Source: an uncultured Gammaproteobacteria bacterium (GTDB lineage: Bacteria; Patescibacteriota; Patescibacteriia; SBBC01; CAIJZX01). Taken from it: a stretch of 56,339 bases of DNA. The stretch spans positions 120,597-176,935 of the forward strand of contig CAZFGG010000001.1 in the NCBI GenBank assembly GCA_964518425.1, given 5' to 3'. This document shows positions 2,754-9,920 of the stretch, one piece after another (within the stretch, counting starts at the first letter, position 1; every line of letters starts with the position of its first letter). The translations under genes were made by a program, and so were the position numbers. The notes beneath the pieces are model-generated. The model saw only the letters and a program-made list of their open reading frames with translations, had not been told where the DNA came from and did not search any database.

Positions 2754-3965
2754 ATGCCCGTCTACGATTATAAAGCCAAAGATGCTGACGGTACGACGAT
2801 TACCGGCGCGGTTGAAGCGCCGAACGACGTTGTTGCCCAAGACACCCTGAAGGAACGCAGCCTGATCGTTGTTTCGTTGTCCGAACGAAAACGGAATACG
2901 CTCTTCCAGTCGAGCTTAGGTTTCTTCAACCGCGTACCCAAGAAAGATGTGGTTCTATTCGCCAGGCAGTTAGCGGTCATGATTTCCGCTACCGTCCCGA
3001 TCGTCCAAGCCCTTCGTATTCTCGTCAAGCAGACATCGAACATCACGTTTAAAATTATCATCTCCGAAATCGCTGACGAAGTTGATGGTGGCGCGAAACT
3101 TTCTGGTTCATTGGCCCGGTACCCCCAAGCTTTTTCCGATTTCTTCATTCACATGGTCCGTTCCGGAGAGACGACCGGCAAACTCGACGAGACCCTGAAT
3201 TACCTGGCCGACCAGCAAGAAAAAGATTACGATCTCGAAAGCAAAATTAGAGGCGCGATGATCTACCCGGCCTTTATCCTCAGCGCCATGGTTGTGATCG
3301 GCGTTCTCATGATGGTTTTCGTCATCCCGAAACTAACTGACGCCCTGAAAGCAGGCGGGGCAAAGTTACCGCTGGCGACAACCATCCTGATCGGTATTAG
3401 TAGTTTTCTACAGCACCAATGGTGGCTATTATTGGCCCTGATCATCATTGGTGTAACGGTTGCCCGGCTCTACTTACGTACGCCCGGCGGTCATCGGCAA
3501 TTTGATACGCTCAAGTTCCACTTGCCGATTTTTGGGGAAATTTTCCAAAAAATTTACCTCGTTCGTTTCTCTCGGAGTTTTTCAACGCTCATCGCCAGCG
3601 GTATCCCGGCCACGAAAGCCCTAGAAATTGTAGCTGACGTCATTGGCAACGTCATTTACAAAGATTTAACACTCCAAACAATTCAGGAGGTTGAGGCGGG
3701 GAATTCGATTGCCTCGGTCCTCGTCCAAAGCAAGGTCGTCCCGCCGATGTTACCACAAATGATGATCGTCGGGGAACAGACCGGTAAACTTGACCTTATT
3801 TTGGATAAGTTAGCGACCTTCTACGCTAAGGAACTTGAAAACGTTGTGGCGAACTTGGTCAGCATTATCGAGCCGTTAATCCTGGTTGTCATGGGTGGGG
3901 CGGTCGCGGTTATTGTCATGGCTATTTTGCTCCCGCTCTACAATCTTTCCAGTGCCATTAGTTAG
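2754..3965 (+). CDS. pilC: Type IV pilus inner-membrane platform protein PilC/GspF
   Basis: 403 aa with a duplicated GspF-type cytoplasmic domain and three hydrophobic segments. Lies directly after pilB/pilT. Confidence 0.92.
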   Translation: MPVYDYKAKDADGTTITGAVEAPNDVVAQDTLKERSLIVVSLSERKRNTLFQSSLGFFNRVPKKDVVLFARQLAVMISATVPIVQALRILVKQTSNITFKIIISEIADEVDGGAKLSGSLARYPQAFSDFFIHMVRSGETTGKLDETLNYLADQQEKDYDLESKIRGAMIYPAFILSAMVVIGVLMMVFVIPKLTDALKAGGAKLPLATTILIGISSFLQHQWWLLLALIIIGVTVARLYLRTPGGHRQFDTLKFHLPIFGEIFQKIYLVRFSRSFSTLIASGIPATKALEIVADVIGNVIYKDLTLQTIQEVEAGNSIASVLVQSKVVPPMLPQMMIVGEQTGKLDLILDKLATFYAKELENVVANLVSIIEPLILVVMGGAVAVIVMAILLPLYNLSSAIS

Positions 3966-3982
3966 ACCAAAAGCATTTTTTG

Positions 3983-3991
3983 TGCTATACT
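3983..3991 (+). promoter_or_regulatory. Extended -10 promoter element TGcTATACT upstream of the major pilin (about 105-nt 5' UTR)
   Basis: Exact TGnTATACT match in the pilC-pilin intergenic region. Confidence 0.5.
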
Positions 3992-4105
3992 CAATGTGGA
4001 TAACTAAAAAACGAACGAATCGAGGCGGGGTCTAGGGTTCAGTTGGATCTATGACCTCTAGTCTCTCACCCTTGACTCGCTCATCCCTGAAGGGAGGTGA
4101 ACATC

Positions 4106-4663
4106 ATGCAGAAACAGAAAAAAGGTTTTACGCTTATCGAACTGTTGGTGGTCATCGCCATCATCGGTATTTTGTCAGCCATTGGTCTCGTCTCGTTGAA
4201 CGGTGCTCGTGAAAAAGCCCGCGATGCGCAACGGAAAAGTGACTTGGCCCAGATTCGTTCGGCCCTCGTCCTCTTCTACGACGACAACAACTCCAAATGG
4301 CCAGGTATGACAACGGCTTCCGGCACCGTGGTTCAAGCAGTTGCCTCGTGCTTAACAGCTAACCTTGTCACCAACTACCTTCAATTGATGCCAACGTCAC
4401 CATCCTCGAGCACCGCCTGTAGCAACTCGGGAACGTATTATTACGGCTCGAGCGGTCAGTCAGCGGCGGGTTGTGCTAACTTGTCTACGGACTACATCTT
4501 AGCAGCTCAGCTCGAAGGTCAGACGTGCAAACAAGCCTACATCCTCAACTCATTAGGATTCGGCGGAACAGTTGCTGAAACAACCGGCAACAACGTTACG
4601 GTCGCCACTTGTGGTGGTGGTTCGAATAACGAATGTGTAGCAGCCCCCCCAGCCCTTCCGTAA
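4106..4663 (+). CDS. Type IV prepilin, major pilin candidate
   Basis: GGGAGG Shine-Dalgarno 8 nt upstream. Leader MQKQKKG|FTLIELLVVIAIIGIL with Glu+5. Cys-containing C-terminal half and its own terminator. Confidence 0.9.
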   Translation: MQKQKKGFTLIELLVVIAIIGILSAIGLVSLNGAREKARDAQRKSDLAQIRSALVLFYDDNNSKWPGMTTASGTVVQAVASCLTANLVTNYLQLMPTSPSSSTACSNSGTYYYGSSGQSAAGCANLSTDYILAAQLEGQTCKQAYILNSLGFGGTVAETTGNNVTVATCGGGSNNECVAAPPALP

Positions 4664-4681
4664 TTCTGTGAAGGTTTGAAA

Positions 4682-4710
4682 ATGGCATCATACGATGCCA
4701 TTTTCTTTTT
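4682..4710 (+). terminator. Intrinsic terminator after the pilin gene
   Basis: 8-bp stem ATGGCATC/GATGCCAT with a 4-nt loop, followed by TTTCTTTTT. Confidence 0.8.
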
Positions 4711-4722
4711 AGGGAGAAAAAA

Positions 4723-4731
4723 TGCTATGAT
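4723..4731 (+). promoter_or_regulatory. Extended -10 (TGcTATGAT) placed 6 nt before ATG 4738, implying a leaderless mRNA
   Basis: TGnTATGAT, then 6 nt, then the start codon, with no SD sequence. Confidence 0.5.
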
Positions 4732-4737
4732 ACGCTC

Positions 4738-5340
4738 ATGGCATTTATATTTTCGGCACCATTTTGGTTCACCTGGGGTTTTTCAGGGATGATGTCAATA
4801 CTTCTCCTGGCGATATGGTTTTTGCATTTTCTCAAACGATGGCCATTGAAAATGTGGGTTTTTCTAGTTGCTCTGAGTATTCAAGCAGTAAGCGTAGGGG
4901 CTTATTTTTTCCTCCTGTGGACATCATATGGAGGCCTGCGCGGGGAAAAATATTTTCTACCGCCGCAGAACCAGATTTTATTGACCTCAGCGATGCATAT
5001 GCTCCAGCCGTACCTGGTTGGGTGGGTAGCCGCTCTCATCATCGCCTTGGTGTTATGGAAGATTTATGCTCGTTCAAAAGACCAGGTCGCCTTTGATCTG
5101 ACTGACGTGTATTGGATAACCCTTGGCTGCGGCTTGTGTAGCTGGCCAGGATTGTTGCCGTTCTTAGCACTCATTTTTGCCTTCGCCGTCCTGGGGATGA
5201 TATTCCTGGTCATCATTCGAAAACGATCATTTCATGATCGCCTAGTTATTTCACCGTTTATTGTTCCAGCGGCGGTTATCAGCTTAATGACAAATCCATG
5301 GGTTCTCCCGTGGACTCATCTCGATAAGATTCGTTTTTAG
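4738..5340 (+). CDS. Polytopic membrane protein of unknown function inside the pilus locus
   Basis: 200-aa ORF with five to six hydrophobic segments. No family recognised. Confidence 0.7.
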   Translation: MAFIFSAPFWFTWGFSGMMSILLLAIWFLHFLKRWPLKMWVFLVALSIQAVSVGAYFFLLWTSYGGLRGEKYFLPPQNQILLTSAMHMLQPYLVGWVAALIIALVLWKIYARSKDQVAFDLTDVYWITLGCGLCSWPGLLPFLALIFAFAVLGMIFLVIIRKRSFHDRLVISPFIVPAAVISLMTNPWVLPWTHLDKIRF

Positions 5341-5374
5341 AGAGGGGAGCAGGTTAGCCAGATAGGCGGTTTTT

Positions 5375-5383
5375 TGTTATACT
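5375..5383 (+). promoter_or_regulatory. Extended -10 (TGtTATACT) placed 6 nt before ATG 5390 (vestigial prepilin start MVRRGFT)
   Basis: Same geometry as the other leaderless promoters in this window. Confidence 0.5.
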
Positions 5384-5407
5384 TTTGACATGGTGCGACG
5401 CGGCTTT

Positions 5408-5722
5408 ACCCCGCCCCACTTCGTATGTTCTACGTATATATCCTTTACAGCCCAATATTTGGTGAACTGTACATTGGTTCAACAAATAACCTAAAGACCA
5501 GACTCCAACAACATCACGATGGCGCCGAATTATCAACAAAACGCTACCGGCCTTGGAAATTGGTGTACTACGAGGCCTACACCGAGGAAAAATTGGCAAG
5601 GCGGCGGGAACAACGACTAAAACATCACGGCAGCGCTATGCACGCATTGAAGAAACGATTAGAACTTTTTCCGATGAAATCCAAGAAACGTCACTCTTCG
5701 CGAAGTGGGGCGGGGTTTACCC
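5408..5722 (+). mobile_element. GIY-YIG nuclease cassette bounded by a perfect 16-bp inverted repeat and a 10-bp (9/10) direct repeat
   Basis: IR-L ACCCCGCCCCACTTCG at 5408-5423 is the exact reverse complement of IR-R CGAAGTGGGGCGGGGT at 5701-5716. Direct repeat GGCTTTACCC (5402-5411) / GGGTTTACCC (5713-5722). Confidence 0.6.
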
Positions 5723-6111
5723 TGACGGAAACGCTGATTACTGGCGCGCTTTTTGGGTTAGCTATTCTCGTCAGTACGCTTCTGCTCAGCAACGAACGAG
5801 CCCGGACGCGGGATGCCCTTCGGATTGCTGATATGACCCGTTTGGCGAGCGGATTTGCCCTGTTGTATGCTCAGCAGGCGACCTATGCCCCCGCTGCGGT
5901 CGGCTGCGGATCTGTTGGTTCTTTGGCCAGCGTCTGTACGCTCACAGCCGCACTCGGCGATATCAGTACGCTCAAAGATCCAGGACGGTTTCGCTACACG
6001 GTCAGCCAGGTTCCTAACCGGGATAACTTTGCTATTTCCTTTCGTTTGGAACGGCGCTACGGACCATGGTTCGCCGGTCCGCATTTCCTGACCAAAGCAG
6101 GTATCCAGTAA
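5425..6111 (+). CDS. GIY-YIG (UPF0213/YhbQ-type) nuclease domain fused in frame to a type IV pseudopilin
   Basis: N-terminal FYVYILYS..GELYIGSTNNL..R..H..Y..E motif set (about 83 aa). It continues without a stop into MKSKKRHSSRSGAG|FTLTETLITGALFGLAILV, a prepilin leader plus hydrophobic helix. Confidence 0.75.
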   Translation: MFYVYILYSPIFGELYIGSTNNLKTRLQQHHDGAELSTKRYRPWKLVYYEAYTEEKLARRREQRLKHHGSAMHALKKRLELFPMKSKKRHSSRSGAGFTLTETLITGALFGLAILVSTLLLSNERARTRDALRIADMTRLASGFALLYAQQATYAPAAVGCGSVGSLASVCTLTAALGDISTLKDPGRFRYTVSQVPNRDNFAISFRLERRYGPWFAGPHFLTKAGIQ

Positions 6112-6878
6112 TGGCCGGGTCGTCCCTCAGCTACGTCATTGTCGGGCTGCTCGGAGCGGCGGTCGGCAGCTTTTTGAACGTAGTTATCCTGCGGACCCAT
6201 CAAGACCGTCCTTGGTGGCGCGGCCGCTCGGCCTGCCCAAAATGTGGTCATGATCTACGCTGGTATGAGCTGATCCCGGTTTTTTCTTTCGTCGCGCTGG
6301 GCGGAGAGTGTCGGTACTGTCATCACACACTCACTCGCCAGTATTTTCTTGTCGAGGTGCTGACCGTGATCGCTTTTATTATTACGTTTGCCCACGAGGG
6401 GGGATTACTGCCGACGCTTCTTGCTTGGCTGACCGTTAGCGTCATGATCGCCTTGGCGGTTTACGACGCACGCTGGTCCCTCTTACCCGATTCCTTTTCT
6501 ATTGTTTTTGGCCTCGCGGCCGCCCTGTTCTCAGTCTTATCTCATCGCCCCGTCCTAGATATTTTGGCGGGAGGAATTGGAGGAGCGCTTTTTTTCGGAC
6601 TCCAGTTCGTGCTGTCACGACGTCAGTGGGTTGGTAGCGGAGATATTCTCCTTGGAGCTGGGCTAGGGTTGTTGCTCGGATGGCGCTGGCTGACGCTCTG
6701 TCTTTTTCTAGCCTACCTGAGTGGAGCAATTGTGGCCGCAACGCTTATCATCACCCGTCGCGTTAAGAATTCCGGTAATTTAGCCTTTGGCCCATATTTA
6801 CTCAGCGCCGGTTTCGTGAGCTGGATGTGGGGCGACCGGATCATTGACTGGTATTTTAACCATGCGATTTTCCGTTAA
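6111..6878 (+). CDS. pilD: Prepilin peptidase / N-methyltransferase (peptidase A24)
   Basis: FLNVV, CPKCGH...CRYCHH zinc motif, catalytic Asp contexts YDARWSLLPD and GSGDILLG. TAATG overlap with the upstream stop. Confidence 0.92.
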   Translation: MAGSSLSYVIVGLLGAAVGSFLNVVILRTHQDRPWWRGRSACPKCGHDLRWYELIPVFSFVALGGECRYCHHTLTRQYFLVEVLTVIAFIITFAHEGGLLPTLLAWLTVSVMIALAVYDARWSLLPDSFSIVFGLAAALFSVLSHRPVLDILAGGIGGALFFGLQFVLSRRQWVGSGDILLGAGLGLLLGWRWLTLCLFLAYLSGAIVAATLIITRRVKNSGNLAFGPYLLSAGFVSWMWGDRIIDWYFNHAIFR

Positions 6879-7536
6879 ATCACGGCCCGGATTTACGTTA
6901 ATTGAACTACTGATCAGTATTGCTATCATTGGCATTCTGACGGGCATCATGATGGTTGGTATCAATCAGCAAAAAAATATTAGCTTGGCCCGGCGAACCG
7001 CTGAGCAACTGCAGAATGATATTCAGGCCATGCAAAATAATGCCTTGTCTGGCCAGATTGTGACTGGCACAACGGTCGGCGGGTTTGGAGTATTCATTAA
7101 TCAGGGGAGCAGTACCTACAAACTATTCGCTGACGCCCTCGGCATTTGCAGTAATGCCGCCTCACAGACATGCACGCTCAACACCGAATGTCCCAGTGGT
7201 GGAAGCTGTCAGCCAAGCGGATATACGCGATTGCTTTATGACACAAGCGCTCCGGCCGATCCAGTTAGCCAAACGACGGCCCTGTCAACACCAATGTACA
7301 TCAGCAGTCTTGTTGGTACCCGGATGAGCAATGGCACAACGAGCAATTATCTTCGCGCTGACCTGGTCTATTCTCGACCAAGCGCCAATCTGACGATTTT
7401 CGGCGACGCAGCCGATGCCCTGTCATCGCTGACCGTCAAGCTGAAAAATATAAAACTCAATATATGCTACGCTGTAACCATCACCGCAGCCTCGGGCACG
7501 GTCACGAATCGTCAATTCACAACTGCCTCATGCTAG
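6862..7536 (+). CDS. Minor pilin / pseudopilin
   Basis: Leader MRFSVKSRPG|FTLIELLISIAIIGIL. Confidence 0.85.
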   Translation: MRFSVKSRPGFTLIELLISIAIIGILTGIMMVGINQQKNISLARRTAEQLQNDIQAMQNNALSGQIVTGTTVGGFGVFINQGSSTYKLFADALGICSNAASQTCTLNTECPSGGSCQPSGYTRLLYDTSAPADPVSQTTALSTPMYISSLVGTRMSNGTTSNYLRADLVYSRPSANLTIFGDAADALSSLTVKLKNIKLNICYAVTITAASGTVTNRQFTTASC

Positions 7537-8171
7537 CCCATCGCCGCGGCCAAACGCTCCTCGAAATGATCATCGGTATCGGTGTTATCACCGTGGCGAC
7601 GTTCGCGACGGCGACGCTGATTGTTTCTACGATTCGAACTGGTCGAGTCAGTCAAGCAAGAATTGAGGCGGCTGATCTCGCCCGCGAAGGGGTCGAAATC
7701 GTGCGCGGCATTCGCGATAGCAATTGGCTGAAAGCTGATCAGAACGCGGTCGAGAACGATGGGACAACCGTAGTCTGGAACTCGTATCGCGATGGCCTGG
7801 GGTATTATCCGATGAATGGCAAGTATACCGCCCTCTTTGTTCCGACAACTGGCCAGTGGACGCTCCAAACGACCGCCGCCGCAAGCTGTGTACTGTCCGA
7901 CGCGACGACACTGGTCTACCAGAAAACACAAACGGTCAGCGGGTCACCAACGACCTTCTACACGCAGCAAAATCCCTGTAACGGCTGCACGGCGACCAAT
8001 TACCATCGCATTATCGTTGTTACCCCGCTCCAAGATAATGTTACCTTCCCTGGCGCTGGTTCAGCGACACCGATTGATTATCTGTCGGTCGTGTCCACTG
8101 TTTGTGGCAATGCTCTCACTGGACCGAGCAAATCAATCGTTGCTTCGGCCCGCTTATATAATTGGAAATAA
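7530..8171 (+). CDS. Minor pilin-like protein (PilV-like, degenerate leader)
   Basis: MLAHRRGQTLLEMIIGIGVITVATFA; Glu+5 is retained and the start overlaps the previous stop. Confidence 0.75.
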   Translation: MLAHRRGQTLLEMIIGIGVITVATFATATLIVSTIRTGRVSQARIEAADLAREGVEIVRGIRDSNWLKADQNAVENDGTTVVWNSYRDGLGYYPMNGKYTALFVPTTGQWTLQTTAAASCVLSDATTLVYQKTQTVSGSPTTFYTQQNPCNGCTATNYHRIIVVTPLQDNVTFPGAGSATPIDYLSVVSTVCGNALTGPSKSIVASARLYNWK

Positions 8172-8172
8172 G

Positions 8173-8976
8173 ATGCCTCAACGCAAAGGATTCACCCTCA
8201 TCGAACTGCTCATCGTCACGGCCGTCTTTTCATTAATAGCGCTCGTCGCCACGACGGTGATTACTAGGATCCAGTCGACTCAGCGACAAATTCTCGGCCG
8301 CCAGCGAGTTGTCGCCGATGGACGATATGTCCTGGAAGCCATGGGTAGAACCATCCGCCAAAACCTTATCAACTATAAATACTACTGTAAGCCGGATCCG
8401 AACACTGGCTATTGCACATCAAGCCCATCTGGTGCCCAAACTATTTTGGCCTTGAAAGACACGACCAACGTCGAGACGTGCTATCTGTTCGATAATGTCA
8501 ATAAAAAAATCAGGATTATTTCGGGAACGAGCGTGACGAATTGTGCCGGTCCAAGTCCGGTCGACATCACGCCGGCTGACCTGGCGGTTGACGATTTTCA
8601 TATTTACATCACTCCGAAATCCGATCCATTCAAAACAGTTCCGCGCCAGAATACAGATTGCAAAGTCGCTCCAGTCGGAAACCCCGTCACGAGCGGGTAC
8701 GATCCGGACCGGAGCGTTTGCGCCTGCGTTGTCCAACCGATTAGCACCATTGATTGTTATCCTGATCAAGTGTGCGGTTCAACAGCCAACGTTGGCCAGG
8801 TATGTGACCCATTTGCGAACGGTGGTACTGGGGAAAAGAACTGTATTTGCCAAAACGCTAACCAGCAACCCCAAGTGACGTTGTTTATTTCTACCCGTTC
8901 CGTCAACCAGGCATCCGGCGAAAAATCACATTCCACCTTGCAGACCACCGTCACGAGTCACCTCTATCGACGATAA
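8173..8976 (+). CDS. Minor pilin / pseudopilin with a Cys-rich C-terminal domain
   Basis: Leader MPQRKG|FTLIELLIVTAVFSLIAL. The longer ORF from 7816 overlaps the previous gene and was rejected. Confidence 0.85.
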   Translation: MPQRKGFTLIELLIVTAVFSLIALVATTVITRIQSTQRQILGRQRVVADGRYVLEAMGRTIRQNLINYKYYCKPDPNTGYCTSSPSGAQTILALKDTTNVETCYLFDNVNKKIRIISGTSVTNCAGPSPVDITPADLAVDDFHIYITPKSDPFKTVPRQNTDCKVAPVGNPVTSGYDPDRSVCACVVQPISTIDCYPDQVCGSTANVGQVCDPFANGGTGEKNCICQNANQQPQVTLFISTRSVNQASGEKSHSTLQTTVTSHLYRR

Positions 8977-8978
8977 CC

Positions 8979-9903
8979 ATGATGCACCCTCGCCACCAAC
9001 GCCCCGGTGTCGTCCTTCTTCTGGCTTTACTGCTGATGGCGGCAATCGTCGCCTCATCAATCGCTATTGCCACGGCCGTCGCCAACTCATCGCACCAATC
9101 GAAGAACCTCGATGATTTCGTTATCGCTTCGCTCGGCGCGGACAGCGGACTTGAACGAGGTTTAGCGATTGTCAAAACCGGTCGCTCAACTGGGGTGACG
9201 ATTAAGAACGCCACGACCGCCGCGGCCAGTGCGACGCAAGCTGTTGGCGGAAGTGCGGCCACGTTAGCCGTCCAATCCGTCCCAACCGATCAAAAAATTA
9301 TTATCCCGGCCCTTCGACCGTTGGACAGCGTTACCTTCGATTATTTTGGGTATGAGCAGAACGGATATCTGACGACGCTCTCTGGGTCAACGACGATTAG
9401 TGTCGGCGGGGACGTCACCCACTGTGTTACCCCGGATGCCGGTTTGTATCCATGCAACGGAAAATTGGAAGTGGATTGGATCGGCCTGAATACTACTGGC
9501 GAACCATTCTACTCGGGTCGGGCCGCCTATGGGGCTCCGCTGCTGACCGGCTCATCAAACAGCTTGAGCTTGGTGACTAACGTTTTCTCGCCCGACTCGG
9601 ATGCTCCACCGAGTAATATTTCCGCGACCCAAGGATTTCGTATTACTGTCCGAGCTCTCGATGTCTTACCGCATGCTCCGCTGACTGATGCCCAGGCCCT
9701 TGATCGCGCCACGATTCAAAACATTACGATTGCGCCGCCGCCGGTGGTGAATTCCTGCAATGGTAGCGCCTGTCCAACCGGGGTTATTGCTCTGACCAGT
9801 ACCGGCGCCGCCGGTACCAGCCAGTCGGTCAAACAGGCCACGATTCTTTGGCAATTGCCGGCCACGCCACTCTTCAACTTCGTCTTGTTCACCGAAGGCG
9901 ATA

Positions 9904-9920
<17 letters not shown>
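8979..9920 (+). CDS. PilX-N-like pilus-associated protein
   Basis: N-terminal RPGVVLLLALLLMAAIVASSIAIA hydrophobic helix. It is the last gene of the pilin block. Confidence 0.7.

Follow-up and report, generated by a model that had tools for sequence, protein, structure and literature searches.

A GIY-YIG nuclease gene framed by a hairpin-forming inverted repeat at the cleavage-site codons of a minor pilin gene

A 311-bp insertion in a minor pilin gene

We analyzed a stretch of 56,339 nucleotides (nt) from a Kerfeldbacteria-like genome (contig CAZFGG010000001.1, positions 120,597 to 176,935), called the window below, in which a minor pilin gene is interrupted by a 311-bp insertion at positions 5412-5722. 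The inserted DNA encodes a GIY-YIG nuclease, is bounded by a 16-bp inverted repeat, and leaves the nuclease and the pilin in one continuous open reading frame (ORF), directly upstream of the gene for the prepilin peptidase PilD. Deletion of 5412-5722 from the sequence, by which 5411 is joined to 5723, gives an uninterrupted pilin ORF of 136 amino acids (aa). Owing to a 10-bp direct repeat, the boundaries of the insertion may shift by up to 10 bp leftward. The features of the locus are as follows; in peptides, a slash marks the prepilin cleavage site.

5355..5383 (+): promoter-like site, TAGCCA, 17-nt spacer and extended -10 TGtTATACT, 6 nt before the old ATG at 5390
5390..5411 (+): stranded 5′ end of the original pilin gene, ATG GTG CGA CGC GGC TTT ACC (MVRRG/FT), including the left direct repeat
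5390..5494 (+): leftover short ORF of 34 codons, MVRRGFTPPHF..., ending with TAA at 5492-5494, out of the nuclease frame
5402..5411 (+): direct repeat, left copy GGCTTTACCC, 9/10 identical to the right copy
5713..5722 (+): direct repeat, right copy GGGTTTACCC
5408..5423 (+): left hairpin arm, or terminal inverted repeat, ACCCCGCCCCACTTCG, 16/16 complementary to 5701-5716
5701..5716 (+): right arm CGAAGTGGGGCGGGGT, coding for R-S-G-A-G plus the first base of the Phe codon
5425..5673 (+): GIY-YIG nuclease domain, fusion residues 1-83, from Pfam, AlphaFold, Foldseek and residue conservation
5674..5715 (+): basic linker and new leader end MKSKKRHSSRSGAG, with Met84 (5674) and the cleavage-site Gly97 (5713-5715)
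5716..6111 (+): mature minor pilin FTLTETLITGALFG..., 131 aa plus stop, from homology to 136-aa pilins
5425..6111 (+): whole GIY-YIG::prepilin fusion ORF, 228 aa, by translation
6111..6878 (+): prepilin peptidase PilD (Pfam A24_N_bact, E = 8e-28; Peptidase_A24, E = 5e-12), its ATG overlapping the pilin stop

Much of this anatomy had been described in an earlier note made from the letters of the window alone, and it was found again on inspection: the spacing between the extended -10 and ATG 5390, the original frame that passes from MVRRGFT into unrelated sequence, the direct repeat, the exact inverted repeat, the pilin ORF obtained by joining the flanks, the stopless nuclease ORF that reads into FTLTE, and PilD, with both of its A24 domains, immediately downstream. 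Its count of genes with the same promoter-to-ATG geometry was too high: in place of about a dozen, four other genes of at least 80 aa in the window show TGnTAnAnT-N5-7-ATG.

With the joined 136-aa protein as query, 56 homologues were obtained, the named ones being from Candidatus Kerfeldbacteria. About 40 of the 56 are exactly 136 aa long and start with M-x-R-R-G/FTLTETLITGALFG (MSRRGFTLTE, MQRRGFTLTE, MNRRGFSLTE, etc.). They represent the empty site, whose DNA sequence is CGCGGCTTTACCCTGACGGAA, and such alleles in relatives were one of two decisive checks named in the earlier note. The nuclease is present in 1 of the 56, the window's own protein. At the orthologous loci L001, L004, L005, L009, and L014 (L numbers denote retrieved loci), the gene is uninterrupted behind a promoter of the same type. 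The window pilin shares 57-73% identity with the Kerfeldbacteria pilins of 136 aa and retains 21/21 invariant columns of the family. Given uninterrupted orthologues and intact family residues, the 311 bp at 5412-5722 represent an insertion into a conserved gene.

The promoter-like site of the host gene, TAGCCA-17-TATACT with TG (extended -10 TGTTATACT at 5375-5383), is the single one in 5250-6200, and no internal promoter for the pilin was found in that interval. The geometry TGnTATA(C/A)T-N5-6-ATG also occurs at the orthologous loci L001, L004, L005, L009, L012, and L014. Downstream, the fusion ORF runs from ATG 5425 without a stop ahead of MKSKKRHSSRSGAG/FTLTE. Its junction carries a prepilin signature, SGAG/FTLTETLITGALFGLAILV, i.e., Gly at -1, Phe at +1, and Glu at +5, followed by a hydrophobic helix. 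Pfam N_methyl (PF07963) gave no match at E<0.01 for the window fusion and only weak matches for its relatives; the neighboring pilins do match.

Residues 1-70 of the fusion match the GIY-YIG family PF01541 (E = 9.7e-16; 58 bits versus a cut-off of 22.6), in agreement with the earlier assignment of the ORF at 5425. The narrower label attached to it, UPF0213/YhbQ type, fared less well. By sequence, the UPF0213 protein BH0048 (1zg2) matched at E = 0.015 and 18.7 bits, no better than SLX1; by structure, Foldseek placed it at the top for the first domain (E = 1e-3, 29% identity), with SLX1 and I-TevI also among the matches. The structure used was an AlphaFold2 model of the fusion with a mean predicted local distance difference test score (pLDDT) of 91.5, in which residues 1-79 form the GIY-YIG domain (pLDDT >90), residues 87-95, just ahead of Gly97, are predicted to be disordered, and a long helix (100-151) leads into a small beta head. 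The second domain gave weak matches to PAK pilin and PilV. Stand-alone relatives of the nuclease are 81-88 aa long; the domain in the window is single as well, with about 80 aa, but is fused to the pilin. The modeled topology would fit PilD action, with the basic linker and the N-terminal domain placed in the cytoplasm, where PilD acts.

Within the element, the only ORF is the GIY-YIG domain, and no known transposase (DDE, HUH, serine or tyrosine recombinase) was found. An intein was rejected, as Pfam finds GIY-YIG alone in the element and no protein-splicing domain, and so was a group I or II intron or other known RNA, with no Rfam match at E<=1 in 5200-6200. The 16-mer arm does not recur in the 56-kb window, where the sole match with 3 mismatches (4016-4031) is at chance level, and tblastn found no second GIY-YIG there.

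Conserved fusions and a mobile hairpin family

Searching 1.84 billion representative proteins with a profile yielded 15,024 matches, of which the best 150 were classified, with fusions counted as different 50%-identity clusters. Among these 150 were 87 GIY-YIG::prepilin fusions of 156-612 aa, with leaders of 65-178 aa (median, 95). Their junction reads K-S-G-A-G/F-T-L-I-E, with Gly -1 in 87/87, Glu +5 in 85/87, and a conserved Phe +1, and in the nuclease domain Y5, Y16, G18, R26, H30, and E62 are conserved in 89-99%. In 78 of the 87, no Met occurs from the nuclease domain to the cleavage site. Many linkers hold GFTQHHF, GLPSTTF, or VYPAPL, one for each reading frame of the left arm, and inspection of the hairpin consensus showed no stop in any frame. 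In 20/20 occupied pilins examined, an ATG is reached upstream in the pilin frame before any stop, over a median of 97.5 codons versus 9-11 in the other two frames. These comparisons indicate that the fusion of nuclease to pilin is under selection and not accidental. They also favor the proposal of the earlier note that the nuclease acts as an oversized prepilin leader, as the fusions keep both the residues around the cleavage site and an intact nuclease.

Further copies of the cassette, the other decisive check of that note, were found in L012, in L106, and in more than 10 metagenomic sequences, along with many miniatures. About 30 other elements have arms, ACCCAGCACCACTT(T/C)(T/G), that are homologous to those of the window element, with pairing kept by compensatory changes. 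Such double changes affect 8 of the 16 stem pairs among 25 elements, the observed values being reached by 0/500 shuffles, and include two C:G pairs of the window that are A:T in the consensus. The same arms occur elsewhere in three forms, namely complete GIY-YIG elements that lie in other pilin paralogues, short derivatives that are hairpins or resemble MITEs (miniature transposable elements with inverted repeats), and one element in an epimerase gene.

The full copies have different hosts. In L012, a second full element (arms ACCCAGCACCACCTTG and CAAGGTGGTGCTGGGT; GIY-YIG 60% identical to the window's) lies in a different, 505-aa pilin-like gene downstream of pilD, where it is again stopless and in frame, ending ...KQGGAG/FTLIE. 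The closest relative of the window element, in L106 (71/97 aa and 73% nt identity; arms ACCCCGCCCTACTTTG), sits in the orthologue of the window pilin at 7816-8976, which is itself intact in the window. A metagenome scan added full copies in L020-L029, each in a different pilin.

The short inserts, of about 34-103 nt, occupy the same Gly-Phe-Thr codons. Those of L002, L003, and L006 (72-103 nt) are bounded by ACCCAGCACCACTT(C/T)G and its complement, and one 102-nt MITE is found in different pilin paralogues of L003 and L006. A 74-nt insert in L021 keeps the first and last ~25-30 nt of a neighboring full copy and is thus an internal-deletion derivative; L027 carries three copies of a 98-nt MITE, and bare hairpins of 33-37 nt occur in L023, L025, and L028. 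As in the window, the leaders of several homologues are long and end in SGAG/FT, and it is the DNA of these that contains the 72-103-nt inserts. Altogether, 19-21 of 83 prepilin N-termini in the loci retrieved are occupied. As single-stranded DNA (ssDNA), the short copies fold strongly (z-scores of -6 to -8); in the whole 351-nt element the arms pair, with an overall z-score of just -1.7. In IMG/VR viral contigs we found 57 single-arm 16-mer matches, none of them paired within 800 nt, which we estimate to be about chance level and which provides no evidence of hairpin copies in these contigs.

Terminal inverted repeats, multiple copies, and presence or absence at orthologous sites are the hallmarks of MITEs and other terminal inverted repeat elements, and all three were observed here. 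Comparison of the copies showed mobility together with selection for the fusion. It likewise showed insertion at GGN TTY ACN, regeneration of the cleavage site by the right arm, movement among pilin paralogues, and decay to translatable hairpins. The element of the window is one instance of a widespread nuclease-hairpin family that specializes on prepilin leaders.

One host is not a pilin. In L103 (1501-1900; contig SRR26411291_8313), the same hairpin family and a GIY-YIG ORF are found in a gene for an NAD-dependent epimerase, at its Rossmann GGAGF motif. The left side reads MSRIIVTGGAGFT/QPHL, and the right end rebuilds MRILVTGGAG/FIGSHL through an ATGA-type stop/start overlap in place of a fusion, a contrast that also speaks for the oversized leader. 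The element can therefore colonize genes other than pilin genes, namely ones with a 5′ end similar to its right arm. Among the cases examined, a fusion occurs where a peptidase site permits removal, and stop-plus-restart where it does not.

Two other placements of hairpin copies were observed. At orthologous positions in L001 (1510-1564) and L003 (1326-1391), a copy of 55-66 nt abuts the extended -10 of the next gene, with the right arm supplying the TG (...GCTGGgTGGTATAAT in L001 and ...GCTGGgTGTTATACT in L003); the element may modify a promoter there. A 102-nt copy at 5367-5468 of L003 lies farther upstream in a pilin leader, after ATG ACT GGC GAT AAC, apparently inverted (the TTTTACC flank is on the other strand), and the orthologous place of L006 (5663) holds an orphan left arm, a pattern that suggests nested or partly deleted insertions.

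A proposed leader removable by PilD and competing explanations

We consider it fairly probable (roughly 0.7) that the insertion is an autonomous mobile element, a GIY-YIG gene in the loop of a 16-bp hairpin, that has specialized on prepilin cleavage-site codons and whose nuclease is made as a leader removed by PilD. The family inserts at the DNA for the cleavage site, GGN TTY ACN, i.e., Gly-Phe-Thr. The right arm of the element and the adjoining repeat encode x-Ser-Gly-Ala-Gly/Phe-Thr and so regenerate the peptidase site and the whole mature pilin. We infer that translation starts at ATG 5425 and that the nuclease, having no stop codon, is made as a prepilin leader of about 97 aa. The N-terminal nuclease would remain in the cytoplasm while the pilin helix enters the membrane, and PilD would cleave after Gly97 to give free nuclease and normal mature pilin, so that the insertion would have little cost for the host. 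The element is probably tolerated because PilD strips it in this way. The nuclease probably recognizes its own hairpin in ssDNA, as Ssn nucleases do, and would promote copying of the element into further Gly-Phe-Thr sites by a transposition chemistry that we likewise infer; deleted copies persist as translatable hairpins or MITE-like inserts. Whether this amounts to a third route beside introns and inteins, with a host signal-peptide cleavage site as the protein-level excision point and a folded leader of about 95 aa freed by PilD at each pilin maturation, is in our judgment evenly balanced.

Several observations weigh against this explanation. No other folded leader of about 95 aa is known to us. 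ATG 5425 is 35 nt from the 5′ end of an mRNA that probably begins at 5390 and is leaderless; the codon has no visible Shine-Dalgarno sequence and is spanned by the out-of-frame 34-codon ORF. Fusion is not obligatory, given stop/restart variants of the L100 type: in L100, the locus with the closest stand-alone nuclease (69% identity), the stop codon of the nuclease overlaps a new ATG, giving MKAKSGAG/FTLIE. A GIY-YIG hydrolase cannot by itself perform strand transfer or join DNA. The window holds one copy only, and three other pilin genes there are unoccupied. Lastly, the flanking GGNTTYAC(C) repeats are imperfect, at 9/10 in the window and with a Phe wobble base that agrees in about 13/21 copies by hand count. 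These repeats are therefore compatible with a target-site duplication and with Gly-Phe-Thr codons borne by the element alike; an exact duplication is not established across copies, as the wobble bases often differ.

Part of the case against a PilD-removed leader comes from a potential internal start. For this copy, the pilin could be made separately from Met84 (ATG 5674), with an ordinary 14-aa basic leader, MKSKKRHSSRSGAG/FTLTE, that is typical of prepilins, and the nuclease frame would then matter little. A new short leader is used in L024 (MKHKSGAG/FT), where the nuclease is broken, and in L100, and the mini-elements in L003, L006, and L013 also depend on internal ATGs. However, neither a promoter-like site nor a Shine-Dalgarno sequence precedes 5674, and ribosomes beginning at 5425 would still yield the fusion, as no stop intervenes. 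The family as a whole does not depend on a linker Met, since 78 of the 87 fusion clusters have none, and we regard separate synthesis from Met84 as a possible but doubtful account of the window copy. A domesticated host system is less probable still. The hairpins and nuclease might serve recombination or variation of pilin genes, or police incoming ssDNA at the pilus uptake machinery, as has been proposed for Ssn and NTS in Neisseria. The nuclease is conserved, hairpins mark many pilin-gene 5′ ends within one cluster, and Ssn nucleases, which cleave ssDNA at their hairpin repeats, modulate natural transformation (PMC11893778). Nevertheless, presence and absence are patchy among close orthologues, and the hairpin is missing from most pilin genes and most relatives. 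The internal-deletion derivatives, the pseudogenized copy in L024, and the insertion in the epimerase gene resemble the dynamics of a parasite, which makes domestication unlikely.

Cutting off the original start from the gene body, together with the missing Shine-Dalgarno sequence of the nuclease ORF, could mean that the insertion killed the gene and that the locus is a pseudogene or recently disrupted. The pilin ORFs, however, are intact, with a 131-codon body free of stops and frameshifts in the window and 21/21 invariant residues, and likewise in at least 87 independent fusion clusters and the 20/20 occupied pilins, so we judge pseudogenization highly improbable. Recoding from the old ATG 5390, whether by frameshifting into the frame of the nuclease or by hopping from one TTT-ACC copy to the other, with the 16-bp stem bringing the two together, is less probable even than that, although in the window identical TTT ACC codons do flank a perfect stem. 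Both forms are disfavored because the offset from the old start to the nuclease ATG varies among copies (2 mod 3 in the window, L012, and L020; 1 mod 3 in L022, L026, and L100), and because the codon pairs differ in many copies, e.g., TTC ACC versus TTT ACA in L012. No slippery site is present at 5402-5424, a hop of 311 nt would be unprecedented, and conservation of the nuclease-to-pilin frame is explained without recoding.

Relation to described systems and neighboring features

The closest described system is that of the Ssn nucleases and their SRM repeats. These single-domain GIY-YIG enzymes cut ssDNA beside their own NTS/SRM hairpin repeats (Chenal et al., Nat Commun 2025, PMC11893778). 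The repeats flank the ssn gene "like an IS" and spread through genomes, a likeness to insertion sequences that the authors noted, and 2% of NTS repeats, i.e., few, lie within genes (PMC11893778). The present elements share with Ssn a gene bracketed by a hairpin-forming inverted repeat and dispersal of the hairpin as solo copies, and their GIY-YIG domain, within a protein part of about 80-95 aa, is broadly similar in size to the single-domain proteins of about 90-100 aa in the Ssn family (cd10448); L025 and L028 even have complete hairpins on both sides of the gene, as in NTS-ssnA-NTS. They differ in that the hairpin is unrelated in sequence and falls outside the published SRM search pattern, in that the hairpins occupy a single defined codon triplet in pilin genes, where they are translated, whereas NTS is rarely intragenic, and in that the ORF frequently lies within the hairpin loop as part of a fusion with the host protein.

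IS200/IS605 and REP/RAYT are single-strand transposons with an HUH/Y1 transposase and covalent DNA intermediates. They too have hairpin ends, a short specific target beside one end, and accumulating non-autonomous hairpins, but the present element has a GIY-YIG hydrolase only and no HUH/Y1 gene; both are discussed in the Ssn paper (PMC11893778). Closer in their effect on host genes are palindromic repeats that insert in frame. Such Rickettsia palindromic elements were reportedly described by Ogata et al. in 2000. Like other in-frame bacterial MITEs (PMC10969869), they are short, stop-free palindromes that leave genes functional, and they are a functional analogue of the mini-copies; unlike these, they come with no nuclease gene, occupy many surface-exposed positions, and are kept in the mature protein. 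A further parallel lies with homing endonucleases.

Homing endonuclease genes reside in introns and inteins, and free-standing GIY-YIG enzymes such as I-TevI and the Seg proteins exist as well. Common to these and the present element are a selfish nuclease gene at a conserved site of a host gene, its removal from the product, and the GIY-YIG fold, for which I-TevI was a Foldseek match. In contrast to homing introns and inteins, the element has no ribozyme, intein domain, or separate DNA-binding domain, its ends form a hairpin, and the agent of its removal would be a host signal peptidase acting at a site rebuilt by the element. A literature search on GIY-YIG with prepilin, pilin, and Patescibacteria found no description of this arrangement.

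If our explanation holds, removal of an insert by a host peptidase at a rebuilt site would be a new strategy beside intron splicing, intein splicing, and in-frame palindromic repeats, and release of the nuclease may be coupled to biogenesis of the DNA-uptake pilus. The fusions would provide a natural test of the size and folding limits of a PilD-processed class III signal peptide. Ssn-type hairpin nucleases would gain a mobile-element context with clear filled and empty sites, which would help to work out how a bare GIY-YIG enzyme moves DNA. A recurrent annotation oddity of Patescibacteria, "GIY-YIG + N_methyl" proteins and long-leader pilins ending in SGAG, would be accounted for. Because type IV pili are regarded as central both to the uptake of DNA and to attachment to hosts in these ultra-small bacteria, elements that colonize up to a quarter of the pilin genes of a locus may affect the biology of both.

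The window pilin belongs to a cluster at 2754-9920 that also comprises PilC (2754-3965), a major pilin with a Shine-Dalgarno sequence (~4106-4663), a membrane protein (4738-5340), PilD, and at least three more pseudopilins (leaders ending at ~6889, ~8188, and others), whose Gly-Phe-Thr sites are all unoccupied. The pilin stop TAA and the pilD ATG overlap as TAATG (6109-6113), which suggests translational coupling of the two genes, so that expression of PilD could change as well with the insertion upstream. An overlap, ATGA, also joins pilD to the occupied pilin in L012.

Hairpins that fit the SRM pattern were seen in two of the retrieved loci. The pattern HGTCWY...RNCYNB had 3 matches in 461 kb of loci versus 0-6 in shuffles, and none of them corresponds to the hairpins described above. 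The SRM-pattern hairpins (e.g., CGTCATTCCCCGATTAAATCGGGGAATCCAG) lie in L015, a contig of a Saccharibacteria metagenome-assembled genome, at 4342 (+) with a second (-) match at 1986 in reverse-complement coordinates, and in L098 at 3017, near a GIY-YIG gene. Canonical NTS-like repeats therefore exist in Patescibacteria too. In the window, just inside the right arm (5689-5712), CGTCACTCTTCGCGAAG loosely resembles the 5′ conserved part of the Neisseria NTS, CGTCATTCCCGCGAAG, perhaps by coincidence; the equivalent place in L002 reads CGTCGATTTTTCGACGAAG.

Other stand-alone GIY-YIG genes in the retrieved loci have flanks of their own. Another subfamily, of 84-86 aa (L030, L032, L037, L038, L043, L060, and L098), carries conserved arms of the type (TTTAC)CCCCACACC(T/A)AAT..., which in L098 form an inverted repeat around the GIY-YIG ORF (CCCCCACACCATAACAAGCTT and AAGCTTGTTTGGTGTGGAGGG). 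A third subfamily (L035, L036, L039, L047, L048, and L051) shares the 5′ flank ATGAATCCCGTAGTAGAATTTCAGTTCGATT.

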